From: an uncultured Armatimonadetes bacterium
Lineage (GTDB): Bacteria; Armatimonadota; UBA5829; DTJY01
Assembly: GCA_963717145.1 (NCBI GenBank)
Contig: OY970325.1
Coordinates: 5,219,248-5,283,247, forward strand
Length of the DNA stretch: 64,000 bases
Direction: 5' to 3'
The notes under the pieces: model-generated
What the model was told of the DNA's origin: nothing
The model's database searches: none
What the model saw: only the letters and a program-made list of their open reading frames with translations
In this document: positions 4,961-62,768 of the stretch, piece after piece
Numbering within the stretch: position 1 is the first letter of the stretch
Layout of the letters: every line of letters begins with the position of its first letter
Made by a program: the position numbers and the translations under genes

Positions 4961-5054
4961 GGGAGTGTGGGAGTATGGGAGTGTGGGGTATGGGAGTGTG
5001 GGAGTGTGGGAGTCCGGATCGCCCATACTCCCACACTCCCATACTCCCATACTC
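4961..5054. repeat. Hairpin built from GGGAGT/GGGAGTATG hexamer repeats, immediately after the stop codon at 4958-4960
   Basis: GGGAGTGTGGGAGTATGGGAGTGTGGG ... CCCATACTCCCACACTCCCATACTCCCATACTC. Related copy at 6184-6268. Confidence 0.8.
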
Positions 5055-5059
5055 TGCTA

Positions 5060-5959
5060 CTACTCCTCGTCGCCTCTGCCAAAGATGCGGGTCAGGAGGC
5101 CTGGCTTCCGGGGACTCTCGACCTCCGCCGGCTCATCGTCCGGCCAGTGGAGATCGTTCGCGGCTGCATTCAGTCGGCGGAAGAGATCGTCCGCGGATTC
5201 ATCCTGCTCGGTCTTATCCATGGAGTCGGCCTCAGATTGCGGCTTCACAATTGTTACCTGGGCGATCTCGGGTTCAGCCTCAGAGGCGGAGCGCGTCTCT
5301 TCGACCACCTCGGCCTCAACAGCGACCACCTCCTCACCTCGGGCTGACCGGGTCTCCGTGGGTCGAACGTCCCCCAGTGACTCCATGACAGGGGCGGGAG
5401 CGTCCACCGTCTGGGCGGAAGTGGTCTGTGCACTCGGCATCTCGACCGGCTCGGCTTCGACGTGCATCTCGGGCTTCGGCGACTCGACCTGCGGCGGAGA
5501 GGTCACGGGCGTCGTGACCGCGGAGACCTCTTTGGTCGGATCAGCCATTACCGGCCCGCTCGTCGTCCGGAAAATCTCGTCCTGCATCTCGCCGGCAAGC
5601 TCGTGTGTCCGGTGAAAGAGGTCGTTCACCCTGGACATGGTCTCTTCCCACTCGGGAGTGCCGCCGTCTTCGTTCTCCTTGGGGGCAGGCAGCTCCTTCA
5701 CCAGATGCGTGAACTCGGCGGAGAGCGCCAGGTTTGTGTCCTGCATCTGGTGGAGCACCGAACTGGCGCGATGGAGCATATAGTTCAACTCGCGCTGGCG
5801 TTGAAGTAGTTCGGAGGCGATGTGGTTCATCGAGGTCTCGCGAGTGCGGAAGTCCTCGACCTGCTGCTGGAGAAGCTTGCTCCGTTCGGCCAGAACAGCC
5901 TTGTGCTTGAGCGCTCTGAGCAGCTTGTCCTTCATGTTCTCGCTGAAATCTGGTGACAC
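5060..5959 (-). CDS. Hypothetical protein with a coiled-coil N-terminal half and an acidic, low-complexity C-terminal half
   Basis: 299-aa ORF with a coiled-coil-like N-terminus and no obvious stops in the surrounding GC-rich frame. No recognisable catalytic motif. Confidence 0.4.
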   Translation of the reverse strand: MSPDFSENMKDKLLRALKHKAVLAERSKLLQQQVEDFRTRETSMNHIASELLQRQRELNYMLHRASSVLHQMQDTNLALSAEFTHLVKELPAPKENEDGGTPEWEETMSRVNDLFHRTHELAGEMQDEIFRTTSGPVMADPTKEVSAVTTPVTSPPQVESPKPEMHVEAEPVEMPSAQTTSAQTVDAPAPVMESLGDVRPTETRSARGEEVVAVEAEVVEETRSASEAEPEIAQVTIVKPQSEADSMDKTEQDESADDLFRRLNAAANDLHWPDDEPAEVESPRKPGLLTRIFGRGDEE

Positions 5960-6183
5960 GAATCATCCCTCGCTTGGTTCCCTGACGACTCCCGTCGTCG
6001 GGGATACTGGTACTTATACCAGGATTATCGGCGGTTTCGACGGCTTTTCTGAGGCGGCACTGCCAGTTCAAGTTTATCACCATTCTCGGAGGATGTAAAC
6101 AAATGATGCCCGCCGACCCCTCATTCATCTCTACGCGTCACTCGGCCCAGGGGTTCCGGGTGAAGGAATCCGTCGTCCTGGAG

Positions 6184-6268
6184 GAGTATGGGAGTGTGGG
6201 AGAATGGGAGAATGGGAGTGTGGGAGTCCGGAACGCCCATACCCCCATTCTCCCACACCCCCATTCTC
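6184..6268. repeat. Second copy of the GGGAGT-type hexamer-repeat hairpin, just upstream of the RBS of the sugar-binding protein gene
   Basis: GGAGTATGGGAGTGTGGGAGAATGGGAGAATGGGAGTGTGGGAGTCCGGAACGCCCATACCCCCATTCTCCCACACCCCCATTCTC. Confidence 0.8.
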
Positions 6269-6285
6269 TCCCCAGGAGGCATGCC

Positions 6286-7257: not shown

Positions 7258-7309
7258 GCCCCTCCTTACGAAGGAGGGGCCGGCCAGCAGGCCGGGGGAG
7301 GTTTCCGGA
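7258..7309. repeat. Family A REP hairpin (inverted orientation) directly after the stop of the binding-protein gene
   Basis: GCCCCTCCTTACGAAGGAGGGGCCGGCCAGCAGGCCGGGGGAGGTTTCCGG. Confidence 0.8.
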
Positions 7310-7371
7310 TGGGCTGCTGGATGCGCTGCCGCTTGCAGGGGGGTGGCCGGAGGAGGTTAGAGGCTTGACCG

Positions 7372-7769
7372 AGTTGTTCAACCGGAAGACGGTGACCGCC
7401 AGACGTCGAGCACTGCGCGCTATCATGCCCGAGCCGGAAGTCGTCCTGTGGTCCAAGTTGAAGGGCAGGCAGGTGGACGGCGTCAAGTTTCGCAGGCAGT
7501 ACAGTGTCGGTCCGTACATCATCGACTTCTTCGCGCCAAAGGCCAAGCTTGCCATAGAAGTGGATGGCGACACCCATTCTGCGGAGGGGGCTGGTGAGCG
7601 TGATAGACAGAGGCAAGCTTACATTGAGGGTTTTGGCATCCGTGTGCTTCGGTTCACAAACAGGGAGGTTCTGCGCAACTTAGACGGTGTGCTGGTGACG
7701 ATACAACAAGCCATCTGCGAGGCCACGCCGGAAAACCCCCTCGGCCCAGAGGCCGGTCCCCCTTCGTAA
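7372..7769 (+). CDS. DUF559-type endonuclease-domain protein (very-short-patch-repair-like fold)
   Basis: Motifs LWSKLKGRQVDGVKFRRQ, IIDFFAPKAKLAIEVDG, H, RD and GIRVLRFTNREV are typical of DUF559. Start is uncertain (TTG 7372 or ATG 7428). The caller's Met at 7245 lies in the REP. Confidence 0.55.
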
Positions 7770-7770
7770 G
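7715..7770. repeat. Family A-variant REP hairpin overlapping the 3' end of the DUF559 gene
   Basis: CCGGAAAACCCCCTCGGCCCAGAGGCCGGTCCCCCTTCGTAAGGGGGAC. It is the reverse complement of the element at 2531-2592. Confidence 0.75.
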
Positions 7771-7803
7771 GGGGACATCTCGGTTGCGCCAGGTTGTCTT
7801 GAC

Positions 7804-10930: not shown

Positions 10931-12886
10931 ATGGTACGATTTGCCAGTCTTGTGGCCCGTGAGGGAAAGATATTGAAGACGACTGTTCTGCTGTCGGGCA
11001 ATGAGGCGATCGCCCGAGGCGCATATGAGGCCGGTGTTCGGGTCGCCGCGGGTTACCCCGGCACCCCGAGCACCGAGATACTTGAGAACATCACCCAGTA
11101 CGAGACGATCTACGCCGAGTGGTCGCCGAATGAGAAGGTTGCCCTCGAGGTCGCTCTCGGCGCTGCTCTCGGAGGCGCTCGGGCGCTCTGCACCATGAAG
11201 CACGTCGGCGTCAACGTCGCGTCCGACCCGCTGATGACCGCCTCGTACACCGGCATCAACCGTGGACTCGTGCTGGTGAGCGCCGACGACCCCGGCATGC
11301 ACAGCTCCCAGAACGAACAGGACAACCGTCACTACGCCCGGTTCGCCAAGATCCCGATGCTCGAACCGGCCGACAGCCAGGAGTGCAGGGACTTCACCAT
11401 CCGCGCCTTCGAGATCAGCGAAGCGTATGATACCCCGGTGCTGCTCCGAACGACCACCCGCGTGAACCACGGGAAATCGACCGTCAGCCTCTCTGAGCCG
11501 CAGGAGCCGGTCTTCGGCAGGTTTGAGTGCAACCTTCAGAAATACGTGATGATCCCCGCATACGCGATGAAGCGCCATGTGATCGTGGAGGAGCGGATGA
11601 TCCGCCTGAGGGAGTTGTCCAACGCCTCCGGTGTCGCCATTGCCCGTAGTGGCCGTGCCTCTGTGCCGGCCTCCGAGATCACTGGCCGGCACAGAGGCAC
11701 GGCCACTACGGGCAATGGCGACCTGCACCGCATCGAATGGGTCGACACGTCGATCGGCGTGATCACCTCGGGGATCGCATACCAGTACGTCAGGGAGGTG
11801 CTCCCGGAGGCGTCGGTACTGAAGCTCGGGATGACCTATCCGCTGCCCGACCGCCTGATCCGCGAGTTCGCGTCGAAGGTCGAGAAGCTGTACGTCGTCG
11901 AGGAACTCGATCCGTTCCTGGAGGATCAGATCAAGGCGCTCGGAATCGAGGTCATCGGCAAGGAGCGCTTCCCGATCATCGGCGAGCTGAACCCGAGGCT
12001 CGTCGCCGCTGGATTCGACTTGGGTAGGGGCGTGCCTTGTGCCGCCTGTGACGAGGTACCGGGCGGAGATGGACAGGCCACGGGCGGCACAAGGCACGCC
12101 CCTACAACCCAGCGGTTGGAGGGTGATATCCCCGGGCGGCCGCCGGTCCTCTGCCCGGGATGCCCTCACCGCGGGTTCTACCAGGTTCTGAAGAAGATGA
12201 AGGCCATCGTGACCGGCGACATCGGATGCTATACGCTCGGAGTGCTTCCGCCGCTCGAGGTAATGGACACCTGCATCTGCATGGGCGCATCGATCGGGAC
12301 CGCGCTCGGCATGAAGCGCGCTCAGTCGCCCGACGACAAGCGCCCGGTCGTGGCGGTGATCGGCGACTCAACTTTCGTCCACTCCGGGATCACCGGCCTG
12401 ATCGATGCCGTCTACAACGGCACGGCCGCGACGATATGCATCCTCGACAACTCCACGACCGCGATGACCGGCGGGCAGGAGCATCCGGCGTCGGGGAAGA
12501 CGCTCATGGGCAGTCCGGCGCCGAAGCTCGATCTGGCGGCCCTCGCACGTGCGATCGGTGTCGAGGACGTGCTGGTGGTCGATCCATACGATCTGGAGGC
12601 AGTCGAGAAGGCGCTCAGGTATGCGACCCGGACGGATAAGCCTTCGGTGATCATTACGAACAGGCCGTGCGTGCTGAGAGACAGGTCGGAGAAGCCGCCG
12701 AAGTCCTCCATCGCGCTGGAAATGTGTACCGGCTGCCAGGTGTGCTTCCGGATCGGATGCCCGGCGATGGAGTCGGTGGCGGTCGACGACAAGTTGCGCG
12801 CGCGGATCAACGCCAACCTGTGTCAGAGCTGTGGTGTCTGCATCCAGGTATGCCGCTTCGAGGCCATTGGGAGGCCGGAGGAATGA
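10931..12886 (+). CDS. iorA: Indolepyruvate:ferredoxin oxidoreductase alpha subunit, carrying two in-frame palindromic-element insertions
   Basis: N-terminal VLLSGNEAIARGAYEAGV and GYPGTPSTEI thiamine-pyrophosphate-enzyme motifs. C-terminal 4Fe-4S motifs CTGCQVCFRIGCP and CQSCGVCIQVC. 651 aa. Confidence 0.85.
   Translation: MVRFASLVAREGKILKTTVLLSGNEAIARGAYEAGVRVAAGYPGTPSTEILENITQYETIYAEWSPNEKVALEVALGAALGGARALCTMKHVGVNVASDPLMTASYTGINRGLVLVSADDPGMHSSQNEQDNRHYARFAKIPMLEPADSQECRDFTIRAFEISEAYDTPVLLRTTTRVNHGKSTVSLSEPQEPVFGRFECNLQKYVMIPAYAMKRHVIVEERMIRLRELSNASGVAIARSGRASVPASEITGRHRGTATTGNGDLHRIEWVDTSIGVITSGIAYQYVREVLPEASVLKLGMTYPLPDRLIREFASKVEKLYVVEELDPFLEDQIKALGIEVIGKERFPIIGELNPRLVAAGFDLGRGVPCAACDEVPGGDGQATGGTRHAPTTQRLEGDIPGRPPVLCPGCPHRGFYQVLKKMKAIVTGDIGCYTLGVLPPLEVMDTCICMGASIGTALGMKRAQSPDDKRPVVAVIGDSTFVHSGITGLIDAVYNGTAATICILDNSTTAMTGGQEHPASGKTLMGSPAPKLDLAALARAIGVEDVLVVDPYDLEAVEKALRYATRTDKPSVIITNRPCVLRDRSEKPPKSSIALEMCTGCQVCFRIGCPAMESVAVDDKLRARINANLCQSCGVCIQVCRFEAIGRPEE
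11636..11719. repeat. Family C palindromic element (GTAGTGGCCGTGCCTCTGTGCCGGCC ... GGCCGGCACAGAGGCACGGCCACTAC) inserted in frame within iorA
   Basis: Perfect inverted repeat. The frame is maintained and it translates to IARSGRASVPASEITGRHRGTATTGNG. Related copies at 24166-24230, 24326-24350 (half) and 50770-50800 (half). Confidence 0.85.
12024..12105. repeat. Family B palindromic element inserted in frame within iorA
   Basis: GTAGGGGCGTGCCTTGTGCCGCC ... GGCGGCACAAGGCACGCCCCTAC, translating to GRGVPCAACDEVPGGDGQATGGTRHAPT. Same family as 3452-3557, 25661-25721 and 54097-54155. Confidence 0.85.
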
Positions 12887-13461
12887 GCAATCGCACGACG
12901 AACATCAGACTGGCCGGTGTCGGCGGGCAAGGAATACTCGTAGCCAGTGAGGCGCTCTGCGATGCGCTGCTCGCGAGCGGCTTCGACGTGAAGAAGAGTG
13001 AGGTCCATGGGATGGCCCAGCGCGGCGGCACAGTGAACTCCGACGTGCGCTTCGGGGTCAAGGTGTGTTCCCCCATCATACCGGAGGGTGATGTGGACGT
13101 GCTGCTGGCATTCGAGCAGATGGAGGCGCTTCGGTATCTGCCGTCACTCAAGGCCGGCGGAGTCGTGATTGTGAATCGGCAGCGGATACTCCCGTCGGCG
13201 GTCGCCTCGGGGAAGCTGGAATACCCGGCCGACATCGAGAGCCGGCTCGCGGACCACGCGGGCGAGGTGATCTCGATCGATGCGCTGGACTTGGCGAAGG
13301 AAGCCGGCTCAGTCCGGAGCGTGAACGTCTGCCTGCTCGGGGCGCTGTCGCGGTTCCTCGAAGTCGAGGAATCGGTGTGGGAGAGCGTTCTCACCGAGCG
13401 GTTCAGGAACAAGGGGCTCGAGGCGAACCTGAAGGCCTTTGCGCTGGGGCGGGCCGTTTGA
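12883..13461 (+). CDS. iorB: Indolepyruvate:ferredoxin oxidoreductase beta subunit
   Basis: ATGA overlap with the iorA stop. MSNRTTNIRLAGVGGQGILVASEAL is the typical pyruvate-ferredoxin/flavodoxin oxidoreductase start. 192 aa. Confidence 0.8.
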   Translation: MSNRTTNIRLAGVGGQGILVASEALCDALLASGFDVKKSEVHGMAQRGGTVNSDVRFGVKVCSPIIPEGDVDVLLAFEQMEALRYLPSLKAGGVVIVNRQRILPSAVASGKLEYPADIESRLADHAGEVISIDALDLAKEAGSVRSVNVCLLGALSRFLEVEESVWESVLTERFRNKGLEANLKAFALGRAV

Positions 13462-13488
13462 GTATGAGTATGAGTATGAGTATGAGTA
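13459..13488. repeat. (GAGTAT)5 hexamer microsatellite directly after the iorB stop
   Basis: GAGTATGAGTATGAGTATGAGTATGAGTAGGAG. The complementary (ATACTC)n array is at 50463-50498. Confidence 0.8.
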
Positions 13489-13500
13489 GGAGCGGGAGCC

Positions 13501-19811: not shown

Positions 19812-19840
19812 ATAGCATCTGTTGGGTCTCTGTTGGGTCG

Positions 19841-19927
19841 GGAGTTGTACTCCCGAACCGGAGACTGGTTTGGCGGAGTTCAACTCCGCGTCGGTTCGGC
19901 GGGATGGAGTGCAACTCCATCCCGAAC
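19841..19927. repeat. Family D REP-like element (GGAGTTGTACTCC / GGAGTTCAACTCCG hairpins) in the livH-livM intercistronic region
   Basis: GGGAGTTGTACTCCCGAACCGGAGACTGGTTTGGCGGAGTTCAACTCCGCGTCGGTTCGGCGGGATGGAGTGCAACTCCATCCCG. Related copy at 36121-36228. Confidence 0.75.
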
Positions 19928-21334
19928 GGGGACGGTAGGCTTTCGACTTTGGACTTTCGACTTTCGACTAGACCTGCGATCCTGCGCCTGTTGCCGTTCA
20001 TCGCGCTCGTCGCAGCCATACTGGCGATACCGAACCTGGTATTCAAGCCGTCCGAAACGGGCGGCAACTACTACCTCACGGTTCTGATCTACGTCGGGAT
20101 CAACACGATCCTGGCGGTCGGACTGAACCTGCTCATGGGGTATGCGGGCCAGGTGTCGCTCGGTCACGCCGCCTTCTACGGTCTTGGCGCGTATGCGTCC
20201 GCCGTTCTGACGACCCGTGGCGTCCCTGCCGGTATCGTGGCCCCCGCAGCCGCCGTGATCGCCGTAATGGCGTCCGCCGCAGCGATCATCTCCATGCTTC
20301 GAGCCGAGTCCGGCAGGTTCTTGCTCTCGGTGGGCGGCTTCCTCCTTGCAGCAGTCTCCGCCGTCCACTTCGGACTCGCACACCCGGTGCCCTACATTCT
20401 GCTGGTCGCGGGCTGGATGGTTTCGTATGTTGCATACAGGATGTCGCCGATCAAACTGGCAGTCCCCTACGCCATCGGAGCGGTGGTCGGGCTCGTCACC
20501 TATTGGCTACTCGGACACGCCACGGGCGGCATGTCGCCCTGGTACGCGATGGCCGCCGGACTGGTCTTCACCTGCCTGATCGCGTATCTTATCGGCTCTC
20601 AGGCACTGAAGCTCCATGGACACTACCTGGCGATGGCGACTCTCGGCTTCGGCGTGATCATCGCCATCATCCTCGTGCAGTGGGAGCCGATGACGGGCGG
20701 CACATCGGGGATCTATGGCATTCCCAGCCTGCAACTCGGCAAGCTGGCCCTCGACAACGATATCTCCGTCTATTACCTGGTATGGGCGCTGGTTGCGGTA
20801 GTGATCGCGTTATCCGCCAACATCGTCAACTCGCGGATCGGGCGCGCGTTCCGAGCCGTGCACGGAAGCGAGGTTGCGGCGGCTTCTCTCGGGGTCGACG
20901 CGACTCGGTACAAGGTGCAGGTCTTCGTGCTGAGCGCCGCCCTGGCTTCGATCGCCGGCAGCATCTACGCTCATTACGTCACTTTCATCAGCCCCGAGCC
21001 GTTCGGGTTCAAGTTCTCGATCGAACTGGTGGTCATGGTGGTCATCGGGGGCTTGGCGAGCATCTGGGGCGCGGTGTTTGGGGCAGCGACGATAACAATC
21101 CTCGGCGAACTGCTGCGCGGGCTGGGAACGACCCAGACATTGGGCGCGGAGAAGGGCGTCTTTGCCCTGATCCGAGATAGACTCGGTGCTTCCCCCTCAG
21201 ATTTTGACGTGATCATTTTCGGCCTGATCCTGATGCTCATCATGATATACATGCCCAACGGCCTGCTCCGGACGATCGTCGACAGCGCGAAGTCTGCCAT
21301 CCGCCTGGCGCGGAGAAAGAAGGCGGTGGAGTGA
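19908..21334 (+). CDS. Branched-chain amino acid ABC transporter permease (LivM-like) with extra TM segments
   Basis: LLMGYAGQVSLGHAAFYGLGAYASAVL core motif. Start is uncertain because the first in-frame ATG lies inside the REP. Confidence 0.7.
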
Positions 21335-24153: not shown

Positions 24154-24165
24154 CAGATGGCTCAT

Positions 24166-24230
24166 GTAGTGGCCGCGCCTCCGTGCCGGCCACTGAGGTG
24201 GTAAGGCCGGCACAGAGGCACGGCCACTAC
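24166..24230. repeat. Family C REP hairpin downstream of paaK2
   Basis: GTAGTGGCCGCGCCTCCGTGCCGGCCACTGAGGTGGTAAGGCCGGCACAGAGGCACGGCCACTAC. Confidence 0.8.
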
Positions 24231-24401
24231 ATGCTATTTCACATCCATTTTGCTCGAGGAGGTGATCTTACTGCACCTGAGCTTGGTTTCTATCTGATAA
24301 GGCGAAACAAGGACAGCCTTATCAGGTAGTGGCCGGTGAATGCCGGCATAGTACGAGCGGATTTCGGTCCGCGATTCGAAAATACAGAGGAGGTAAGGAA
24401 A

Positions 24402-25556: not shown

Positions 25557-25660
25557 GAATCCGAGGGAATGGAGTGGTGGAGTGTCGGGATAACGGGCAC
25601 CTCACCACACGATAGGCGCGAGGGCCGGGGGCATCTGCTCCCGGCCCTTATGCTGACAAT

Positions 25661-25721
25661 GTAGGGGCGTGCCTTGTGCCGCCCGTTGCCGCGTGTCGGG
25701 CGGCACAAGGCACGCCCCTAC
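25661..25721. repeat. Family B REP hairpin in the intergenic region
   Basis: GTAGGGGCGTGCCTTGTGCCGCCCGTTGCCGCGTGTCGGGCGGCACAAGGCACGCCCCTAC. Confidence 0.8.
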
Positions 25722-25792
25722 ATCGTGATTGGCGGTAGGACTTCCGACGCCCGAGGGCGAAGAATACCCCAGAGGCATCCGCGAAGATCACC

Positions 25793-27783
25793 ATGGCAGT
25801 CGAACCCTACGATCCGCGACTCTTATCCGCAGCAGACACCGCGACCGAGCACGAATCCGCCCAGGCCGATCCTTCGACAGGCTCAGGAGGCATCACCTGG
25901 CGCGCGCTCCTGATCGGGTTCATCGCCATCATCCCCGGCGTCTTCTGGGGCGTCTACGGCGATGTCGTCTCCCAGACCGACCTGACCTCGACCTCGCTGA
26001 TGATGCCGCCGGTCCTCATCCTGATGGCGCTCCTCGTCCTCAACGGCATCGTCAGGCGCATCAGGCCGATATGGGTGCTCGGCCGCACGGAGTTGATCAC
26101 CATCTACGCGATGCTTACCGTCTCCGTGATCCTCTCCGGCATGGGGATGCTCCAGTTCCTGATGACATCCCTCGGCGCGGTCCCGCACTTTGCCACCCCC
26201 GAGAACGGATGGGGCGCTTACCTCAACATGGTCCCGCACTGGATCATGCCGAAGCTCTCCGCCATCGACGGCTTCTACGTCGGCAACAAGCCGATCCCCT
26301 GGTCTGCGTGGACGAACCCGATCCTCCTGTGGAGCGGATTCCTCTTCGCGATGCTCTTCTGCATGATGTGCATCAACACGATCCTCCGCAAGCAGTGGAT
26401 CGAGCGGGAACGGCTCACATATCCCATAGTCCAACTTCCGCTGGAGATGACCGACCCGAAGAGCCGGTTCTTCTCGAACAGGCTGATGTGGGCAGGGTTC
26501 TTCACCGCCGCCGCACTCGAGACGCTGAACAGCCTCGCGTTCCTCTATCCGAATGTTCCCCAGGTGCAGTTGCGGGCGTTCGACCTTCAGCCGTTCTTCA
26601 GCACCGCGCCGTGGAATGGGGTGGGGTACTTCCCGACGACCTTCTACCCGCTCGCCATCGGACTCGGGTTCGTGCTCGCGACCGACGTGAGCTTCTCGTG
26701 CTGGTTCTTCTACCTCGTGACCAAGGTGGAGGGAGTCCTCACCTCAGCGCTCGGCTGGACGGGTGGGGCGGGCGCGATGAGCGCTCCGCCGTATCTCGCC
26801 CAGCAGAGCGTCGGCGGGTTTATCGGCATCGGCGTCGTGGTGATCTACCTCGCGAGGAATCACCTCAGGGACGTCTTCGCGAAGGTCTTCACCCGCGACT
26901 CCGGCGTTGACGATTCCGAAGAGCCGATGAGCTATCGGATGGCGGTCTTCGGGCTGGGGCTCGGATTCCTCATCATGGTGATATTCTGCGTGGCGGTCGG
27001 CGTCTCTCCGGCTGTGGGGATCGCGTATCTCGGCCTCTACATGCTCTTCGCCACGACGATCAGCCGACTCCGCGCCGAAGCCGGGCCTGCATGGGTGATG
27101 GGCCCGGGTGGGACGCGCTCGACAGCCTCACCCGCCCGATCGGGACCGGGGCATTCAGCGGGGGAAACCTCGTCGCGCTCGCCTACTTCCACTGGTTCAG
27201 CATCGAGATGAGGTGCTGTCCGATGGGCGTGCAGGCCGAGGGGATGAAGATGGCGCAGGCGACCCGAACGAAGCAGCGGGTGATGACGATCGTTCTCCTC
27301 GCGGCGATGGTCATCGGGATCGCGGTCGGATTCTGGGCGTGCCTCGCGGTATGGTACAAGTTCGGCGCGGGGACGGCGAAGGTCGAGCCGTGGCGCACCG
27401 GTATGGGCGCGGCGCCATTCGACCGGGTCACGGACTACATGCAGAACCCGCAGAGGGCCGATGTCGCGGGCATCCTGGCGATCGTCTTCGGCACGGGGTT
27501 CACGTTCCTGCTCAGTCTGATGCGGAGCCGGTTCGTATGGTTTCCGCTCCATCCGGCGGGATACGTGCTCGCGAACACCGGCACGATGTACTGGCTCTGG
27601 TGTCCGTTCCTGCTGGCGTGGATCATCAAGGTCCTGATCATCCGCTACGGCGGGATCAAGGGCTACCGGACCGCGCTCCCATTCTTCCTCGGCCTCGTCC
27701 TCGGCGACTACATAGCCTCGAGCCTCTGGGCCCTCGCGGGCTCCGTTCTCGGCATCACCATGTACCGCTGCTTCCCCTGCTGA
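25793..27783 (+). CDS. Large polytopic membrane protein, paralog 2 (reading frame shifts around 27090-27210)
   Basis: ORF 25793-27211 continues in ORF 27091-27783. Together they align end to end with paralogs 1 and 3 (ILRKQWIERERLTYP, WFFY, FPLHPAGYVL, IRYGG). Confidence 0.55.
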
Positions 27784-27845
27784 TTTCATACTAGTACTCG
27801 TGCTCGTAATCGTACTCGTAATCGCGGTCTTGGGGTTGTCGCGCG

Positions 27846-28298: not shown

Positions 28299-28528
28299 AG
28301 CCGGTCCTCATACATATTCTCACGCCTGAGGGCCTCATCGGGGATGCGGACGCCGGATACCCGCCCGGCAAGGAGTCTCCGCCAGGCTGCATCTTTTGAC
28401 GAAGTGCGCCGACGCTGAGGCTTCTCAACCGCGAGTTGGATTACCAGCGACTGGTTGATCGGCAGGTCCACCGGATCGTCGGGAACGATGGTCTTGCCAT
28501 CATAATGCGCGCGGATTCTCATTGCCAT
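28295..28528 (-). CDS. vapB: Type II antitoxin (VapB-like, DUF104-like small beta protein)
   Basis: MAMRIRAHYDGKTIVPDDPVDLPINQSLVIQLA resembles the DUF104 antitoxin pattern. Translationally coupled to vapC. Confidence 0.55.
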   Translation of the reverse strand: MAMRIRAHYDGKTIVPDDPVDLPINQSLVIQLAVEKPQRRRTSSKDAAWRRLLAGRVSGVRIPDEALRRENMYEDRL

Positions 28529-28560
28529 GGGATTCACCTCGCAAGCATTATACCACATCG

Positions 28561-32228: not shown

Positions 32229-32230
32229 TC

Positions 32231-42827: not shown

Positions 42828-43285
42828 TACGGGCCTCCGCAAGGTGGAAAGGTATGCCCTAAGATACCCGTGCTGAGGCGCACTTGTCAAATATTATTGG
42901 GCAGCGACATGAGTCGATGGAAGATCCAGAACATGCATTCCGCCCAGCCGGTCCGCATATCTGTAACCTAGAGCAGGCCCTGCCAGTCCCGCTTACGCCA
43001 TCGTGCCGCTGCCCAAACTTAGTGTGCCGGTCCATCAGTCGAACAGACATACTGACGCACCGACAGTCTGACATACTGAAATACTGTGAATCTCTGCGGG
43101 TGGTGGATAGCCACCGTCTTCGGCGCAACCGCTGTCCGGAACGGTCTGGTGCTACCCAATCAAGGGGTAATGATTCTCGTATCGCAGCCATGGCGATACC
43201 AAGCACTAAGAGTATACCCTAAACCTACTAACTTGTCAACAATGCATCAACGCTGACGGCAAGTTTTTTCGCCGATCGGCATACT

Positions 43286-47444: not shown

Positions 47445-47620
47445 AGTGCTCTCCTGCCAATCGAATGTTAAGAATACGTCATATATTCGCACAAAACGCC
47501 GGTTCTGTCAATACCGAGAAACGGGAGACCTTAGACTTTGGACCTTGGACCGGCCACCCGGATCGTGGGAACTAGAGTCCAACGTCTAGGGTCTAGGATC
47601 TACCGCCACGGAGGAATCGC

Positions 47621-49138: not shown

Positions 49139-49903
49139 ATGAGCCCATTTGTTGCAGGCCGCGAGTTCCTCAAGGCCCACGTGTGGAAGGAGTTCAGCGA
49201 CCAGAAGCTTGTCACCGGCCAGAGTATGGGAGCGCCCAGACCTGATCCCGAGAAGCCGTTCCCGAGCGACGCCCGGCTGATCGACCTCGTCGATCCCGCC
49301 GACTTCACGGTTGGCGACGTCCCGATCAAGGACGTCATCCGCCGCAGACGAAGCCGGCGGAAGTTCACAGACGAGGCGCTGTCACTCGAAGAGTTGTCGT
49401 ACCTGCTCTGGGCGACCCAGGGCGTTACGAAGGCCGCGAACCTCCGAGACGGTGTCCTCACGTACCGGACGGTCCCGGCGGGAGGCGCGCTTCAGCCGTT
49501 CGAGACCTACCTGGCCGTCAACCGGGTCACCGGCGTCGAAGCGGGCCTGTACCGATACCTCCCGATGGAGCACAAGCTGCTCTTCATGCGCTCGGATCCC
49601 GATCTCATGGAGAAGGCTGCCCTCGGGTGCGCCGGTCAGGACTTCGTGGCGACGAGCGCGGTCGTCTTCATCTGGACGTGTCTCCCGTACCGCAAGGAAT
49701 GGCGGTATTCGGTCGCCGCGCACAAGATCATCGCCCAGGACTCCGGCCATCTCTGCCAGAACCTCTATCTCGCTGCCGAGTCGGTCGGCGGCGGGACGTG
49801 TGCGATCGGGGCATACTTCCAGGAGGAGATGGACACCCTTCTGAGCGTCGACGGCGAGGACGAGTTCACCATCTACGTCGCCCCGGTGGGGAAGGTCGGG
49901 TAG
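49139..49903 (+). CDS. SagB/ThcOx-type nitroreductase-fold dehydrogenase domain protein
   Basis: RRSRRKF, LSYLLWATQG and GHLCQNLYLAAESVGGGTCAIGAYF motifs. Confidence 0.7.
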   Translation: MSPFVAGREFLKAHVWKEFSDQKLVTGQSMGAPRPDPEKPFPSDARLIDLVDPADFTVGDVPIKDVIRRRRSRRKFTDEALSLEELSYLLWATQGVTKAANLRDGVLTYRTVPAGGALQPFETYLAVNRVTGVEAGLYRYLPMEHKLLFMRSDPDLMEKAALGCAGQDFVATSAVVFIWTCLPYRKEWRYSVAAHKIIAQDSGHLCQNLYLAAESVGGGTCAIGAYFQEEMDTLLSVDGEDEFTIYVAPVGKVG

Positions 49904-49976
49904 TGAGCAGTAAATGGTGAACGGTGAGCAGTGAGTTCCGAGACCGTTCACCGTTTACTGCTTACCGTTCACCGGC
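49904..49976. repeat. 72-bp palindrome between two convergent genes (bidirectional-terminator-like)
   Basis: TGAGCAGTAAATGGTGAACGGTGAGCAGTGAGTTCCGAGACCGTTCACCGTTTACTGCTTACCGTTCACCGG. Confidence 0.75.
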
Positions 49977-49977
49977 C

Positions 49978-50439: not shown

Positions 50440-50462
50440 TCTCTCTACCTCCTTCAGAAATC

Positions 50463-50638
50463 CTACTCATACTCATACTCATACTCATACTCATACTCAA
50501 TCCGGGGCGAAGCATTGGCGATTCTGTCCCGAAGTCGGCGCAGTCCGAAGGGCCAATGCTTCGCCCCTACATCCTGGGCGGAGAACTGGCGATTCTGTCC
50601 CGAAGTCGGTACAGTCCGATTGGCCGATGTTTCGCCCC
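50463..50638. repeat. (ATACTC)6 microsatellite followed by two tandem copies of an about 65-bp palindrome
   Basis: CCGGGGCGAAGCATTGGCGATTCTGTCCCGAAGTCGGCGCAGTCCGAAGGGCCAATGCTTCGCCCCTAC, then a variant copy. Confidence 0.8.
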
Positions 50639-50890
50639 TACACCCGGAGATGTCTGGTCTAGCGCAGCTTTCTTCTGCGGCAACTACGGTATATATACCG
50701 TGCTGTACTTGCCGCATAGTGCGGTAAGTCGCGCACTCCCCCAGGACGTGCCGTTGCCGCCGTCCCGCCGGATGGCCGGCACGGAGGCACGGCCACTACG
50801 GTTTTCGTCGCACCGGCCTGCTTGTCCTGCGAGGCAGGGAAACGGATGGTTTACAATCCCGGGCGCTTTCCACTATCATTGTCCCACGCA

Positions 50891-54087: not shown

Positions 54088-54096
54088 CCATGGGCT

Positions 54097-54155
54097 GTAG
54101 GGGCGCGCCTTGTGCCGCCCGAGATAGGGCTGCGGGCGGCACAAGGCGCGCCCCT
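54097..54155. repeat. Family B REP hairpin (GCGC variant)
   Basis: GTAGGGGCGCGCCTTGTGCCGCCCGAGATAGGGCTGCGGGCGGCACAAGGCGCGCCCCTAC. Confidence 0.8.
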
Positions 54156-54184
54156 ACAGCCTAAGTGTCTAAGAGGAACTCATC

Positions 54185-59484: not shown

Positions 59485-60475
59485 AGCAAGTTCCAGTGGG
59501 GCCGCTGCGGTTACAAGTACCCGTGTCGGAGGTTACGCCGCAGGAACCGTGTGATTCGGCGATGACCCGGCCAACACATATGTTGCTGCATGGCGTTTCG
59601 GCTGACTGGCACACCGCACTTGTGTGCACCGCAGGACCTGCTGGACCCTCAGTTCCCTGTGGTCCGGTGGGTCCGGTAGCACCAGTGGCCCCGGTAGGTC
59701 CTTGCGGGCCCTGAGGTCCTTGCGGACCTTGCGTCCCTTCTGCACCTGTGTCGCCCTTAGCCCCCGCAAGCCCTTGAAGTCCCTGTGCTCCGGCATCACC
59801 CTTGGGTCCTTGCAGGCCTTGCGGTCCCTGCGGACCGGGTTCACCCTGAGGGCCCTGCAACCCCTGCGTCGCCGCGGTCACCTGCAATGACCCATCCGCG
59901 AATTGGACACCGCCGGTCGATCTGATCACACCGATCACGTCCAGTGCTGTCAGGGGACTCCCGGTTCCGATCCCCAACGACCCGGTGACGTACACGTTGC
60001 CGATAAACCGGCCCGCCGGTCCTGCGCCAAGGTTAGTGACCTGGAACGCCGGCAGGTCGCTCGACGCACTCCCTGCGAACGGCAGTGAGAGGTCTGCCGC
60101 ACGTATTGCATACGGCGCGGTCGTCAGCCGTGTGCGAGGGCAGAGCTCCGCCGAACTGAGAGGCTGCATGCCGAGCCAGTATTGCCTGTCGAACGGCAGA
60201 GCGATCGGTGTCACCGCGCCGAGGTTGACGTTGAATACACCGCCGCTGGTCTGAACGCTCTGAACCTCCTGCCAGAGCGCCGTGCCCTGTCCGCAGGTTC
60301 CCACATCATACAGGCGGAATGTCACGCTCTGCACGCCGTCACTCACCGGCTGGCCGAGCGAGTTGGTCAGCTTGCCCTGTAACGTGAGTATCCTCGGCAC
60401 GTCACCGAGAACTCCAGCGGCCAACAGATGCGACAAAGTTAGCAGCATCACGAATGGAACCAAGTGTGTCTTCAT
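59468..60475 (-). CDS. Secreted protein with collagen-like Gly-X-Y repeats and a Cys-rich C-terminus
   Basis: Signal peptide [22 protein letters not shown]-terminal domain shared with the next gene. About 30 G-X-Y triplets ([22 protein letters not shown]...). C-terminus CVCSP. Confidence 0.65.
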
Positions 60476-60529
60476 ATTCCGTTTCTCCCTACTCGAACCC
60501 TTGATCGGACATAGTTGCCGAGCCGGATG

Positions 60530-61354
60530 CTACAGCTTCATGATGAACGCCAGGGCATAGAACGGCGGGCAGTTCTCATGAGGCTGGTTGCCGCCCGTTG
60601 CGCCCGTCTGTACACTCTCGGGACGCTGCACGCCATCCTGGCCGCCATTACACCCGGCCCAAGCATGGCCGCTCTCAGTATGCGTATGCGACGGCATCTC
60701 GGCCACGGTCAGGGTATGTTGATGCTCTCCGCCGGTGAGCATCGGACTCCCCTTCACGGTGGTATAGGCTACTCCTCCGACATCCTGGCTTGCCCCGACA
60801 AGGAACCTGTCCCTCAGATTGGGCGTCCCGTTCGTCCCGTCGCAGATCACCCAGCCCTGAGGGATCGTGGCAATCGAGCCCGACCACATCAGGATTACAC
60901 CGGACGGTACTACTCCGACTCCTGCCGCAAGCTTTTCAGGCGTGATCGCGCCGTCCTTTACCGTATCCGCTATCTCCGCCCTCACTGCATACGGCGCGGT
61001 CGTCAGTCGCGTGCGAGGGCACAGCTCCGAACCCGTTGCCGGCTGCATCCCGAGCCAATACTGCTTGTCGAACGGCAGACCAATCGCCGTTACTGCACCG
61101 AGGTTCACGTTGAACACTCCGCCGTTGGTCTGAACGTTCTGGACCTCCTGCCACAGAGCTGTGCCTTGCCCGCACGTTTCCACGTCGTAGAGCCGGAATG
61201 TCACACTCTGCACCCCGTCACTCACCGGCTGGCCGAGCGAATCGGTCAGCTTGCCCTGAAGTGTCAATACTCTCGGCACCTCGCCGAATGCACCGGCGGC
61301 CAGTGCACATAACATCATTGTTACTACGGCATATCGCAACACAAGCGTCCTCAT
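60530..61354 (-). CDS. Secreted protein with a phage tail-collar (MdpB-like) C-terminal domain. Shares its N-terminal domain with the collagen-like protein.
   Basis: AAGGAGG RBS before the ATG. Signal peptide MRTLVLRYAVVTMMLCALAAGAFG. C-terminal LMWSGSIATIPQGWVICDGTNGTPNLRDRFLVGA ... NCPPFYALAFIMKL is the tail-collar signature. Confidence 0.65.
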   Translation of the reverse strand: MRTLVLRYAVVTMMLCALAAGAFGEVPRVLTLQGKLTDSLGQPVSDGVQSVTFRLYDVETCGQGTALWQEVQNVQTNGGVFNVNLGAVTAIGLPFDKQYWLGMQPATGSELCPRTRLTTAPYAVRAEIADTVKDGAITPEKLAAGVGVVPSGVILMWSGSIATIPQGWVICDGTNGTPNLRDRFLVGASQDVGGVAYTTVKGSPMLTGGEHQHTLTVAEMPSHTHTESGHAWAGCNGGQDGVQRPESVQTGATGGNQPHENCPPFYALAFIMKL

Positions 61355-61400
61355 CCCTCTTTCCTCCTTTGTGATATCTCCATCAGTACACCAGCGATAG

Positions 61401-62266
61401 CTACTCCACAACCTCCAGATCATCGGCCTTGCGAGGCTGGACAACCGCGTCGAGCACGCTCCCCCGCACGCGCACACCTGATATTCCGCTCACCAACACG
61501 TACCCCCCGACCTCCGGTACCGTGGTGAGATTCGCCTTGGCCACTCTGAGACCCGTCTCCCAAAACGGTGACTTCGATCCGTCGTTGATCACGATGTAGT
61601 CGGCGTAGCTGTTGTCGATAACTACCCCGCTGGTACGAATAAAGAGGCCCACATTGTTCACCCCGATTGCGCCGAGTACCCCCCGCTGGCCCAGCGGCGG
61701 AACACCCAGATTGGCCCCCCGACCTGGCGATTGATCATGAAGATCCCTGCGAGTGGATCTCCCTGGCCCACTACCGCGAGCATGGGGTTCAGAATGATCC
61801 GCTCTCCGTTCAAAGTAGATACACTGCCAACCACATTGATCAGGCATCCCTCGAGCAGCGAGGCGGTCTCTCCTCCGATTCCGACCAGTGCAATGCCGCT
61901 CGACCTGTCCGATGCTTCGGCGTAAATGCGGTCGGCAAAGCAGCCCGGCTCGGCGGTCACCACCAGAGACGCGAGTGCCAGGCGCATCCCGTCTCCCTGG
62001 AGCTTCGCCAATCCGGGTGACGATACGAGCAATGGCGGCGACTCCTCGGCAGACCACACGCCGAGTTGGGCCATTCGCTGCCCCGCCACGGCTGCCCCGA
62101 TGGTGAGCTGGCCAATGCTTACAGTGGCGACGCTGTTCCCGCCGACCATTCGCTCGCCGCCGCACGTGTTGGCAGACCAGCTAATCGCATAGTCGTCCGC
62201 CGCCACTTGCCCGGCGCACACCGCCATCAAGAGGATCACCGGCACAACAATGTACAGCTTGCTCAT
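61401..62266 (-). CDS. Secreted hypothetical protein, split by a frameshift in a G6 homopolymer near 61727-61732
   Basis: Signal peptide MSKLYIVVPVILLMAVCAGQVAA. ORF 61658-62266 continues in ORF 61401-62165 after a 1-nt shift at GGGGGG. Confidence 0.45.
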
Positions 62267-62647
62267 CTTTCCCTCCTTTCATTCATAGCCCATAAAACAG
62301 AACACCCGCGTGCACTACATCGAGCAACCCACGGAAAGCTCGGAGTGTACAGCGGGTATAGTTATCTTCTACTCTCATCTGATGGAAAAGTCAATAGATG
62401 TAAGAGGGATTGCCGAAAAACCGGTATTATTACCAGTTGGTTGTCATGCGTGCGTTCCGTCGCAGGCATCGCGGGGAGGTTCGGAACAGACACAAAAAAA
62501 GTGGCCCGGTCCGCCGAAGCAGACCGAGCCGAGTCAGAAAGGAGTGATTATGTACCGATTACTTCCCGAACAACGATCAATACTTATTATCGGCCAACCC
62601 GCGCGAATCTTCAGGTCTTTTTGCCAGGTAATGGTTTGTGGTCTATG

Positions 62648-62768
62648 GCTGATGGTTAATGGGGAACGGGGGATGGGCAATGGTCCGGCCATGAACCATC
62701 AACCATCCCCCATGAGCCATTCCGGTCTCCGGCATCAACCATTGACCATCAGCCATCAACCATTCCCC
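62648..62768. repeat. Long hairpin built from GGTTGATGG-type repeats, immediately 3' of the minus-strand gene 62769-63443
   Basis: GCTGATGGTTAATGGGGAACGGGGGATGGGCAATGGTCCGGCCATGAACCATCAACCATCCCCCATGAGCCATTCC ... Short relative at 28803-28830. Confidence 0.8.

Follow-up and report, generated by a model that had tools for sequence, protein, structure and literature searches.

The 64,000-nt stretch of DNA that we analysed, referred to here as the window, carries short-unit tandem arrays in its gene gaps, and their assignment to the long-unit simple-repeat class (STRR or LSSR) is well supported. Several of these arrays build long hairpins, which we read, giving this reading about an even chance, as transcript-boundary stem-loops that were enlarged by slippage of STRR/LSSR-type arrays. 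The original prediction, which had described hairpins with tandem-repeat arms behind stop codons and had assumed a common mechanism or function, is upheld in part, both as an observation and in its interpretation. Its wording of a distinctive class went too far, since repeats of this kind are already in the literature (PMC2670836, PMC4692102, PMC4679880).

Searching with TRF for units of period 6-9 in at least three copies, we found 16 tandem arrays in the window compared with 0.36 ± 0.62 per sequence in 100 dinucleotide shuffles, which confirms that they are no chance microsatellites. Twelve of the 16 arrays are intergenic, a collagen-like coding repeat accounts for two, and the remaining two are weak arrays within genes; arrays survive only in untranslated gaps. 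The units had been described as mostly hexamers, which does not hold, since heptamers (TTGATGG at 28798 and 62630, AATGCGG at 33997) and octamers (GGGAGTRT at 4953 and 6183) prevail and only the TGAGTA-type arrays at 13459, 27789 and 50464 are hexameric. The unit families that recur in the window are TGAGTA (three sites), TTGATGG (two) and GGGAGTRT (two). The elements are compiled in Table 1. Three small GGAGTTNNACTCC-type hairpins (19840-19925) precede element K, and the window also contains GTAG-headed palindromes, which form a class apart from the tandem-armed hairpins.

Table 1 Repeat elements of the window and their predicted RNA folds (MFE in kcal/mol).
Element	Position	Strand	Description	Folded region	MFE	z	Fold
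A	4953-5054	none	octamer-armed hairpin, fills the gap between convergent genes	4953-5062	-77.8	-9.6	hairpin
B	6183-6268	+	octamer-armed hairpin in the 5' UTR of a sugar ABC-transporter substrate-binding-protein gene	6178-6272	-59	-6.3	hairpin
C	13459-13492	+	one-armed hexamer array, TGAGTA x5.7	13455-13500		-1.7	no hairpin
D	27785-27830	-	one-armed hexamer array, GAKTAC on the minus strand	27781-27848		-0.4	no hairpin
E	28798-28824	+	one-armed heptamer array, TGATGGT x3.9	28795-28850		-0.4	no hairpin
F	33997-34065	+	AATGCGG x4.1 heptamers, then a G+C-rich stem-loop; convergent junction	33995-34070	-37.8	-2.9	hairpin
G	50464-50499	-	perfect hexamer array, TGAGTA x6 on the minus strand	50455-50505		-0.8	one-armed, no hairpin
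H	62630-62766	-	compound heptamer-armed hairpin, TTGATGG-type units on the minus strand	62625-62770, minus strand	-73.4	-4.8	hairpin
I	49903-49972	none	heptamer-armed hairpin, GTGARCN units; absent from the original prediction	49903-49972	-45	-7.3	hairpin
J	47527-47602	none	imperfect heptamer-armed hairpin, GACCTTG / GTCTAGG; absent from the original prediction	47527-47602	-41.6	-3.5	hairpin
K	19940-19969	+	one-armed heptamer array, CTTTCGA x4.3; absent from the original prediction				

Typically, an array opens at a stop codon or within it, and the strand that reads in the sense of the gene ending there is the one rich in G and poor in C. The predicted location immediately after stop codons applies to six of the eight elements listed before, the exceptions being 6183-6268 and 50464-50499, which lie upstream of genes. 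At 4958-4960, 13459-13461, 28798-28800, 34000-34002 and 62769-62771, the stop codon is contained in the first unit or immediately precedes it. In element A the stop, TAA, is part of a unit and the minus-strand gene on the other side ends at 5060-5062, while the first unit of element F likewise holds a TAA. Element C opens with the TGA that terminates the POR gamma-subunit gene and extends into the ribosome-binding site of the following gene (ATG 13501). Element D is placed between two stops, those of a DUF6784 gene (27781-27783) and a PIN-toxin gene (27846-27848), whereas element E begins with the TGA at which a duplicated 3' fragment of a DUF6784 gene stops; the matching coding 3' end at 27783 runs into a different array. 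Element H directly follows the stop of the minus-strand gene 62769-63443, and element I fills the gap between a nitroreductase gene (stop 49901-49903) and a convergent DinB-like gene (stop 49978). All four convergent junctions of the window with a spacer of more than 20 nt carry an array. Some elements are found in 5' UTRs or within operons. Element B lies 18 nt 5' of the start of the substrate-binding-protein gene (true ATG 6286), within a divergent region, and the base of its stem (6176-6181) forms pairs with the AGGAGG of the Shine-Dalgarno region (6274-6279). Element J occupies the divergent region between an HMGL-like and an M32 carboxypeptidase gene, element K lies just 5' of the next gene, and element G, 24 nt 5' of the start of the DinB-like gene (50439, minus strand), is neither post-stop nor a hairpin.

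The same placement was seen in other genomes, where GGGAGTRT arrays at more than 114 loci from at least ten phyla begin 0-10 nt past the stop of a long same-strand ORF; 30 of 50 such stop-abutting arrays face a convergent gene. Among 90 stop-abutting arrays with other units, 64 are heptameric, and the sense strand is poor in C (A 181, C 83, G 217, T 170).

Calculation of fold energies supported a hairpin for four of the eight elements listed before, with the G/C-rich centres that had been described for them, while the other four (13459, 27785, 28798, 50464) are one-armed; the claim of one shared architecture is restricted to the same half. Since half of the listed arrays lack a second arm and a predicted structure, structure cannot be their common denominator. 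The hairpins A, B, F, H, I and J range from -38 to -78 kcal/mol with z-scores of -2.9 to -9.6, and element B folded with its flanks reaches -72.8 kcal/mol (z -6.1). In element A, a left arm of GGGAGTRT x7.8 (4953-5013) and a right arm of CCCAYACT x4.1 (5022-5054) enclose the apex CCGGATCG. Both strands fold equally well in sense and antisense, and this lack of asymmetry gives no indication of selection on the RNA of one strand.

The leading idea of the original prediction, namely that the elements are canonical intrinsic (Rho-independent) terminators, appears highly improbable to us. The true hairpins do offer stable stems with G+C-rich centres, and hairpins are located at convergent gene ends both in the window and in other genomes. 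However, a T-run follows an element in no case, and since a U-tract is missing from every element, none of them is a canonical terminator. A terminator scan, which retrieved 20 hairpins with a T-run in 60 kb compared with 29.7 expected, recovered none of the elements. Moreover, element B and the hairpins of relatives L115 and L118 are positioned directly 5' of the ribosome-binding sites of downstream genes.

When relatives were inspected, as the original prediction had proposed, hairpins were found to be kept at the same junctions with different sequences. The hairpin of element B is kept in L123, L124, L125 and L126 with changed units and arms that still match; its own arms in the window pair with -72.4 kcal/mol, whereas the left arm of the window combined with a foreign right arm reaches only -45.8 to -58.9 kcal/mol. 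Five genomes, with 84-100% protein identity, possess this hairpin in the 5' UTR of the substrate-binding-protein gene, and each of them has a paired ribosome-binding site. Heptamer hairpins with related units are located at the DinB 3' end in L115 and in the window (element I). The spacer between the M32 and nitroreductase genes contains a heptamer hairpin in L115 and L118, which has been lost from the window without replacement. Element J is absent from L118, only degenerate GAGT-containing sequence is found in L115 at the position of element C, and the junction of element A is occupied in L123 and L125 by ordinary hairpins unrelated to A. The arrays of close relatives differ by whole units (L124 versus L126, L175 versus L176, L180-L182), and three samples of one population had identical arrays. 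Elements A and B have a common 21-nt apex, which is present nowhere else, so that A looks like a copy of B as judged from the sequence.

These data also bear on the rather unlikely explanation that the arrays are neutral by-products of slippage, in which units of about 7 nt slip best and persist where no reading frame is broken, hairpins being accidents where two arrays meet. The lack of structure in half of the listed elements, the absence of strand asymmetry in folding, the perfect young arrays (100% at 50464-50499 and 96% at 13459-13492), the gain and loss of elements between relatives, the variation by whole units and the dominance of heptamers (64/90), which has also been reported for this repeat class (PMC4679880), are all consistent with it. 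What it does not account for are identical units at separate sites and across phyla, the strong bias in orientation relative to the gene, and the enrichment of arrays at convergent junctions. It would likewise not predict that long palindromes, which are unstable and prone to deletion, keep matched arms and a paired ribosome-binding site while persisting at one orthologous site across 84-100% protein identity.

For the reading of boundary stem-loops enlarged by slippage we propose the following course. Arrays of head-to-tail units of 6-8 nt lengthen, shorten and become uniform via slipped-strand mispairing, and two arrays of the same unit facing each other would give a stem of 30-45 bp, whose arms either selection or template switching inside the palindrome might keep complementary; entire hairpins could be copied into new gaps, as A probably was from B. 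Judging from position and stem length, the copies in the transcript would most likely serve as stem-loops at cistron boundaries, which at convergent gene ends would block 3' exonucleases or halt read-through, and stems of such length would be expected to be RNase III substrates. At the substrate-binding-protein gene, the base of the stem would mask the ribosome-binding site. One-armed arrays are repeat material of the same kind, minus the structural role. Several points speak against such stem-loops: no element has a U-tract, termination at those hairpins that are intra-operonic would be harmful, and the hairpin between the M32 and nitroreductase genes was lost in the window without a substitute. 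The lack of a second arm in half of the listed arrays, the equal folding of sense and antisense strands and the identical arrays in three samples of one population count against it as well. In addition, matching arms can be explained by DNA-level correction of the palindrome, which needs no selection on RNA.

[quoted passage not shown] GGGAGTRT fits the pattern G3N5G3N5G3N5G3, with eight G-tracts in A and six in B, and the position rule matches that of the earlier study (PMC4692102). Among 128 arrays from other genomes, four tracts are commonest (56 arrays; five in 14), but 41 have only three. Furthermore, TGAGTA, TTGATGG, AATGCGG, GTGAACG and CTTTCGA cannot make three tetrads, and in A and B pairing with the complementary arm competes with quadruplex formation by the G-rich arm.

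Very unlikely, too, is an action of the sense arrays on ribosomes or Rho that does not involve structure. In the first of three versions, Shine-Dalgarno-like GGAG runs retain terminating ribosomes for re-initiation; in the second, stop triplets in the units serve as back-up stops in three frames; and in the third, C-poor sense RNA escapes Rho while C-rich antisense RNA attracts it. The arrays do adjoin stop codons, their sense strand is C-poor, and at 13493-13500, as well as in four-helix-bundle cassettes, the last unit apparently doubles as the ribosome-binding site of the following gene. Translational coupling has been suggested for STRR (PMC2670836). Stop triplets occur in the sense of 57 of the 90 other units compared with 46 expected and 24 in antisense; however, the commonest unit, GGGAGTRT, has none in any frame, and most arrays face convergent genes, which leaves no target for re-initiation. 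Shine-Dalgarno pairing is rare in Bacteroidota and cyanobacteria are not known to have Rho, yet both groups possess such arrays, which counts against this reading.

A new lead comes from the combination of GGGAGTRT arrays in at least ten phyla with a PF05635 gene inside inverted arms. The tandem-armed hairpins might possibly, and we hold this only tentatively, be related to a mobile cassette with this gene, either as versions without the gene or as unoccupied landing sites; the cassette would be spread horizontally and inserted right after stops as an mRNA counterpart of the 23S rRNA intervening sequences, which carry a PF05635 gene and are excised by RNase III (10.1101/2024.02.27.582315). Inverted arms enclose a gene for this four-helix bundle (23S rRNA intervening-sequence protein / bAvd family) at at least 11 independent sites. 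In the loci found through their arrays (L001, L006, L009, L011, L024, L026, L099, L107, L110), a G-rich array begins at the stop of the upstream gene and is followed by the PF05635 gene and a complementary C-rich array; the gene orientation between the arms is constant. Loci picked by protein homology alone (L171, L175-L177, L179-L182) show the same arrangement, with period-8 arrays nowhere but around the gene. Heptamer arms in L099 make the cassette independent of one unit, and proteins about 70-90% identical across Chloroflexota, Planctomycetota and Rhodothermota are a sign of horizontal transfer. Loops in Bacteroidota fall into two size classes, one of 33-190 nt and one, which includes the gene, of about 460 nt; common sequence is seen in some of those lacking the gene, and the resemblance of A to a copy of B would fit copying inside the window. 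On the other hand, hmmsearch detected no PF05635 gene in the window or the loci of the relatives, neither a target-site duplication nor a transposase was found, and element B is fixed at one orthologous place in five genomes, unlike a mobile element. The cassette also leaves the one-armed arrays and non-GGAGT units unexplained, the loci found through their arrays had been selected for the array, and a small gene may simply tend to land or survive in hairpin loops.

Among known systems, REP/REPIN elements, including the REP stabilisers of E. coli operons, are likewise many-copy intergenic palindromes, often post-stop, and protect upstream mRNA against 3' exonucleases. They are a fixed GTAG-headed sequence moved by RAYT transposases, whereas the tandem-armed hairpins lack this head and have repeat-built arms. 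With the rRNA intervening sequences the elements share a long inverted-repeat stem and an optional loop gene, and that gene family also lies between GGGAGTRT-type arms in other phyla; these sequences are sporadic, with horizontal spread suspected, and cutting of the stem by RNase III makes their insertion into a transcript tolerable (10.1101/2024.02.27.582315). The elements differ in that they lie in mRNA gaps rather than in rRNA, have tandem arrays as arms and, in the window, lack a PF05635 gene; their cleavage by RNase III is a prediction. The TAACTGA heptamers of Beggiatoaceae, Cyanobacteria and Bacteroidetes (MacGregor 2015, PMC4679880) are also intergenic, with dominant heptamers, strains differing by whole units and a unit common to distant phyla with no known vector. 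They mostly lie just 5' of start codons and were interpreted as translational-regulator sites, whereas most arrays here abut stops; the comparison includes the survey of LSSR by Mrazek et al. 2007, which that paper cites. The G-rich heptamers of Rehm et al. 2015 (Xanthomonas GGGAATC, Nostoc GGGGA(C/T)T; PMC4692102) are, as here, over-represented and intergenic, flank the same genes in relatives with variable length and sequence, occur as inverted copies and most commonly have four G-tracts. In that study they were under-represented between divergent genes, compared with three elements in divergent regions here, and most units of the window are not quadruplex-capable while long arm-to-arm hairpins are prominent. 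Comparable, too, are the cyanobacterial STRR, including the hupS-hupL hairpins, which consist of intergenic tandem units of about 7 nt that form hairpins when inverted and for which roles in transcript stability or translational coupling were put forward (PMC2670836). The elements differ from STRR in their host, which belongs to the Armatimonadota, in the octamers and hexamers beside heptamers, and in a GGAGT-core unit common to many phyla. Classic STRR units are TTGGTCA and CAACAGT, and TGACCAG/CTGGTCA, CCAGTGA and ACTGTTG, found here, are like them.

Sixteen tandem arrays with a period of 6-9 nt and at least three copies were detected by TRF in the 64-kb window, which has a G+C content of about 62%, while 100 dinucleotide-preserving shuffles contained 0.36 ± 0.62 such arrays (maximum 3). 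This confirms the original prediction in so far as the repeats do not represent chance microsatellites. According to a self-trained gene map with Pfam check, 12 of the 16 arrays are intergenic and located in untranslated gaps; the remaining four comprise two weak, intragenic arrays and two period-9 arrays (59700-59833), which are explained by a coding repeat for a collagen-like Gly-X-Y sequence (59533-59877, minus strand). The repeat units include the octamer GGGAGTRT, the heptamers TTGATGG, AATGCGG, GTGARCN, GACYTTG and CTTTCGA, and the hexamer TGAGTA with its relative CGAGTA, so that the units are not mostly hexamers, as had been assumed. Within the 64 kb, the TGAGTA type occurs at three sites and the TTGATGG, GGGAGTRT and GACTTTG types at two sites each. 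A CRISPR was rejected, since the arrays are without spacers, and so was phase variation, since the arrays show no connection to surface genes and lie beside ordinary metabolic genes.

Six of the eight arrays that were expected to follow immediately after stop codons indeed begin in or beside one, as illustrated by the junctions at 4953 (GGGAGTAA|GGGAGTGT), 13459 (TT TGA GTA TGA GTA), 28798 (TGC TGA TGG TCG ATG G) and 33997 (GCG TAA TGC GGA ATG CGG). The two exceptions are the array at 50464-50499, which is located 24 nt upstream of the start of a minus-strand gene, and hairpin B (6183-6268), which lies between divergent genes, 18 nt upstream of the true start (6286) of a gene for a sugar-binding protein. 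The signal peptide of this substrate-binding protein begins at 6286 and its relatives comprise 320-335 aa; of practical importance, the publicly annotated ORF (P0122, 384 aa) starts at 6103 and is translated through the hairpin. A tandem array is present at each of the four convergent junctions of the window whose spacer exceeds 20 nt (4961-5059, 27784-27845, 34003-34262 and 49904-49977).

Two copies of the DUF6784 3' end are present, and different arrays follow these at 27783 and 28800. The DUF6785/DUF6784 gene is seemingly frameshifted (25793-27211 and 27091-27783). Beyond it lie, in this order, a minus-strand PIN-toxin gene accompanied by a small partner ORF (27846-28558), a duplicate 3' DUF6784 fragment (28459-28800) and an island of low G+C content (52-57%) with an Eco57I/MmeI-type methylase. 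The region 25793-32971 as a whole looks like a defence island that has integrated into the 3' end of the DUF6784 gene.

The elements had been proposed to share one architecture. RNA folding with shuffle controls supported this for four of the eight (A, B, F and H; z-scores of -2.9 to -9.6), but not for the other four (z-scores of -0.4 to -1.7), which are one-armed arrays with folds no more stable than those of the shuffles. Two further hairpins (I and J) and one further array (K), which the original prediction had missed, are included in the table. The hairpin form is genuine for six elements of the window; what the one-armed arrays have in common with these is limited to the repeat material and the stop-codon rule. 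The stems of A, B, H and I comprise 30-45 bp, resembling the long inverted-repeat stems of intervening sequences also in their untranslated, presumably transcribed position, and the loops of A, B and I 8-12 nt. Sense and antisense strands fold equally well, without a consistent preference for the sense strand when G-U pairs are included. The strand test thus says nothing for selection at the RNA level, and matched arms could be maintained either by palindrome correction at the DNA level or by selection on the RNA.

Hairpins, one-armed arrays and other features with their positions, predicted folding energies and z-scores relative to shuffles.
Feature	Sequence	Position	Strand	Energy (kcal/mol)	z
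Hairpin A	window	4953-5062		-77.8	-9.6
Hairpin B	window	6178-6272		-59	-6.3
Hairpin F	window	33995-34070		-37.8	-2.9
Hairpin H	window	62625-62770	minus	-73.4	-4.8
Hairpin I	window	49903-49972		-45	-7.3
Hairpin J	window	47527-47602		-41.6	-3.5
One-armed array C	window	13455-13500			-1.7
One-armed array D	window	27781-27848			-0.4
One-armed array E	window	28795-28850			-0.4
One-armed array G	window	50455-50505			-0.8
CTTTCGA array K	window	19940-19969			
ANTAR/GH42 leader	window	42891-43285			
ANTAR/GH42 leader	relative's locus L118	1-512			
ANTAR/GH42 leader	relative's locus L123	13069-13758			
ANTAR/GH42 leader	relative's locus L125	13079-13618			
GTAG-headed palindromes	window	3446-3563, 4277-4370, 11633-11722, 12024-12105			
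GTAG-headed palindromes (further)	window	24163-24233, 25656-25726, 54093-54161			

The hairpin form is not a canonical terminator. In disagreement with the suggested role in intrinsic termination, no T-run follows any of the elements, and a scan for hairpins with a T-run, which returned 20 sites in 60 kb compared to 29.7 expected, matched none of them. A G+C-rich stem-loop at the presumed end of a transcript, as in a terminator, is provided only by A, F, H and I and is lacking at B, J and the four one-armed arrays. With the curated gathering score as the cut-off, no family of Rfam 15 was matched in any part of the window. Considering quadruplexes (at least four tracts of at least three G, with loops of 1-7 nt), A contains eight tracts and B six, the hexamer and heptamer families fall short of four such tracts, and the number of G tracts in the arrays of other genomes has its mode at four, with many arrays having three. 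A relation to REP/REPIN sequences is not apparent, since a GTAG head is absent from the tandem-armed hairpins, whose arms vary by site. A MITE-like nature would be in line with the inverted arms and with a unique apex common to A and B; there are two copies in 64 kb, and no target-site duplication was seen at A.

Perfect palindromes with a GTAG head, which are REP/REPIN-like (GTAGGGGCGTGCCTTGTGCCGCCCG, GTAGTGGCCGTGCCTCTGTGCCGGCC), form a separate class in the window. Four of these are located in frame within genes, adding about 24-44 aa compared to orthologues lacking them, and enlarge an ADP-ribosylglycohydrolase and a POR alpha subunit; in this respect they are similar to Rickettsia palindromic elements. 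Small hairpins with the core GGAGTTNNACTCC make up a third family (19840-19925, 36114-36232 and 34147-34247), the last copy containing it within a perfect inverted repeat of 43 nt. In addition, we observed a 22-mer (GTAAACAGGCCTCCCAACCATG) repeated 5.4 times in tandem in an intergenic region (63653-63770), which resembles an iteron or binding-site array, and intergenic tandem duplications of 85 nt (2.1 copies, 32945-33140) and 71 nt (2.1 copies, 50500-50647), the latter with a hairpin (GGGGCGAAG...CTTCGCCCC) in each unit.

The closest named relatives of the window are Armatimonadota. Comparison with relatives, whose loci were retrieved via two proteins of the window, revealed hairpins with changed units at some orthologous junctions, and none or ordinary ones at others. 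Five genomes (84-100% protein identity) share a hairpin upstream of the binding-protein gene, with the units GGGAGTGT/GGGAGAAT in the window, TGGAGTAT/TGGAGTAC in L124 and L126, and TGGAGTGG/TGGAGTAA in L125 and L123, and was lost in the lineage of L128 (84%). In each genome the right arm fits its own left arm: the arms of B in the window pair with -72.4 kcal/mol, while combining the left arm of the window with a foreign right arm yields only -45.8 to -58.9 kcal/mol. At the foot of the stem, an upstream CCUCCUG-like stretch pairs with the ribosome-binding site CAGGAGG in all five genomes. Between L124 and L126, one arm differs in length by a single whole unit; no variation in copy number was found among L115, L116 and L117, three near-identical samples of one population in which the arrays are identical. 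Regarding other junctions, the spacer between the carboxypeptidase and nitroreductase genes harbors a GGTTATG-armed hairpin in L115 and L118 that is absent in the window, and heptamer hairpins with related, diverged units are located at the 3' end of the DinB-like gene in both L115 and the window. We conclude that orthologous sites retain the hairpin form. The junction of element A carries short ordinary hairpins in the relatives, and a 21-nt apex (GGGAGTCCGGAWCGCCCATAC) is common to A and B, which are 1.2 kb apart, and occurs nowhere else in the window and 178 loci; A would therefore most simply be a copy of B or have been converted by it.

A DUF559 (Vsr-like endonuclease) gene (7365-7769) is inserted between the genes for the substrate-binding protein and the permease, which lie next to each other in relatives. 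Inverted repeats of about 40 nt, both with a small hairpin, border it on either side (7259-7300 and 7735-7776), so that the region 7259-7776 represents a second case of a small gene within an intercistronic palindrome. Between the ANTAR response-regulator and GH42 genes, a non-coding leader of about 400 nt is conserved, with long identical stretches in four genomes; it probably represents an ANTAR-controlled leader RNA and has no match in Rfam.

A scan for GGGAGTRTGGGAGTRTGGGAGT using one genome per species returned at least 114 stretches, and the matches listed include Planctomycetota, Bacteroidota, Rhodothermota, Acidobacteriota, Chloroflexota, Cyanobacteria, Verrucomicrobiota, Gemmatimonadota, Armatimonadota and Ignavibacteria. 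Among these listed matches, most arrays, read 5' to 3' on the G-rich strand, begin at most 10 nt past the stop of a long ORF in the same orientation. In the listed Bacteroidota the junction is nearly fixed (stop, 0-2 nt, the variant unit RAAAGTAT, then GGGAGTAT units), with the stop triplet ending 8-10 nt ahead of the earliest perfect copy in 50 of 91 arrays, and in the other phyla listed the stop lies inside the first unit, e.g. cTGAGTGTGGGAGTGT. The 90 arrays of other units that abut one stop, 64 of which are heptamers, are poor in C on the sense strand (A 181, C 83, G 217, T 170). Only four loci on viral contigs contained three copies of GGGAGTRT, which gives no sign of a phage vector.

Convergent junctions usually account for an estimated one in five or so in gene order; relative to this, the share among the 50 evaluable stop-abutting arrays of the listed matches, where the gene opposite is convergent in 30 cases and co-directional in 20, is far above normal. 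Since most arrays face convergent genes, translational coupling was rejected as the main role. A function as back-up stops in all frames was likewise rejected, its enrichment being weak (57 compared to 46 expected) and failing for GGGAGTRT.

In some of these genomes, the inverted arrays enclose a gene for a four-helix-bundle protein, which matches PF05635 (23S rRNA intervening-sequence protein) and PF22296 (bAvd). Among the loci reached through the arrays, this arrangement was identified in L001, L006, L009, L011, L024, L099, L107 and L110 by ORF clustering and profile search and in L026 by inspection. In all loci chosen by protein homology only (L171, L175, L176, L177, L179 and L180-L182), a G-rich period-8 array extends from the stop of the upstream gene to 10-60 nt before the small gene, and a complementary C-rich period-8 array lies over or just past the stop of the small gene; no other period-8 arrays were found in these loci. 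Altogether, at least 11 independent insertion sites in several phyla invariably show the order G-arm, gene, C-arm, which also applies to the heptamer arms of L099, and the proteins are about 70-90% identical across phyla. The number of unit copies differs by strain (13, 5.6 and 3 in L180-L182). An all-against-all clustering of neighbouring ORFs revealed, beyond the four-helix-bundle gene, only ordinary orthologues of related genomes. The duplex energies of the arms around the gene were uninformative, because shuffled C-rich arms still pair with G-rich ones and some of the coordinates missed the arms.

Loops of two sizes are seen in Bacteroidota, one class of 33-190 nt and another of about 460 nt that includes the gene, and some of the gene-less loops have sequence in common. 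The gene-less GGGAGTAT hairpins of three Puia-like Bacteroidota MAGs (L046, L070 and L114) share a loop sequence (GAGAAACTTTRACACTTAA...), indicating dispersed copies of one element rather than independent arrays.

The rRNA intervening sequences associated with the PF05635 family form long stems that are excised by RNase III, and they are thought to spread horizontally (10.1101/2024.02.27.582315). It is possible, if in our estimation rather unlikely, that A- and B-like hairpins belong to widespread, horizontally spreading "mRNA intervening sequences", i.e. a G-rich/C-rich array pair that inserts exactly at a host stop, carries the four-helix-bundle (Avd-like) gene in its loop in the full form, and would be tolerated thanks to processing, which removes the long stem from the host transcript. 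If so, gene-less hairpins, and perhaps one-armed STRR-type arrays, would be its decay products, providing a concrete origin for the 35-year-old STRR puzzle and a genomic context for orphan PF05635 genes; a causal link between arms and PF05635 would connect STRR-type repeats, these orphan genes and intervening sequences. A PF05635 gene was not matched by hmmsearch in the window or the relatives' loci, so that the link to the cassette is a lead and not a classification. A description of PF05635/PF22296 genes in tandem-repeat-armed loops was not found in the literature searched.

As to what the elements do in the window, we see about an even chance that they are slippage-built, transcribed stem-loops at cistron boundaries, acting as barriers at convergent 3' ends, likely as RNase III substrates and, in one case, as a mask of a ribosome-binding site. 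The hairpins are located where a structure at a transcript boundary would be useful; their action would take place at the RNA level, and cleavage by RNase III is suggested by the length of the stems. Three points are amenable to testing: repeats are present at each roomy convergent junction while canonical terminators show no excess, five genomes have kept the hairpin upstream of the transporter gene, its arms co-varying and the ribosome-binding site being masked, and the same arms bracket the four-helix-bundle gene of rRNA intervening sequences in many other phyla.

Short-unit repeats beside bacterial genes have been on record since 1990 in cyanobacteria, Xanthomonas, Burkholderia and Beggiatoaceae. 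The elements of the window are additional members of this class of long-unit simple repeats (STRR/LSSR): as in this class, defined by head-to-tail units of 5-11 nt, the arrays (period 6-9) exceed what chance yields, they are biased to non-coding sequence near gene ends with the G-rich strand sense to the abutted stop, also in other genomes, and copy number and sequence vary among relatives while the flanking genes are constant. The GGGAGTRT array itself had no match by sequence in the literature searched. In filamentous cyanobacteria, STRR hairpins of 7-bp repeats are found e.g. between hupS and hupL, for which transcript stability or translational coupling was suggested (PMC2670836). Likewise, the intergenic repeats GGGAATC of Xanthomonas and GGGGAYT of Nostoc described by Rehm et al. 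are mostly located 0-50 bp past a stop on the coding strand, including overlaps with the stop, vary at the same locus among relatives, occur in inverted copies and most commonly with four units, and form quadruplexes in vitro (PMC4692102); the function of these and of STRR sequences is unknown (PMC2670836, PMC4692102). TAACTGA repeats are common to Beggiatoaceae, Cyanobacteria and Bacteroidetes and have no known vector (MacGregor, PMC4679880), and a survey of 5-11-nt repeats, as summarised there, reported mostly heptamers scattered across phyla (PMC4679880). The window extends these short-unit repeats to a further, poorly studied lineage.
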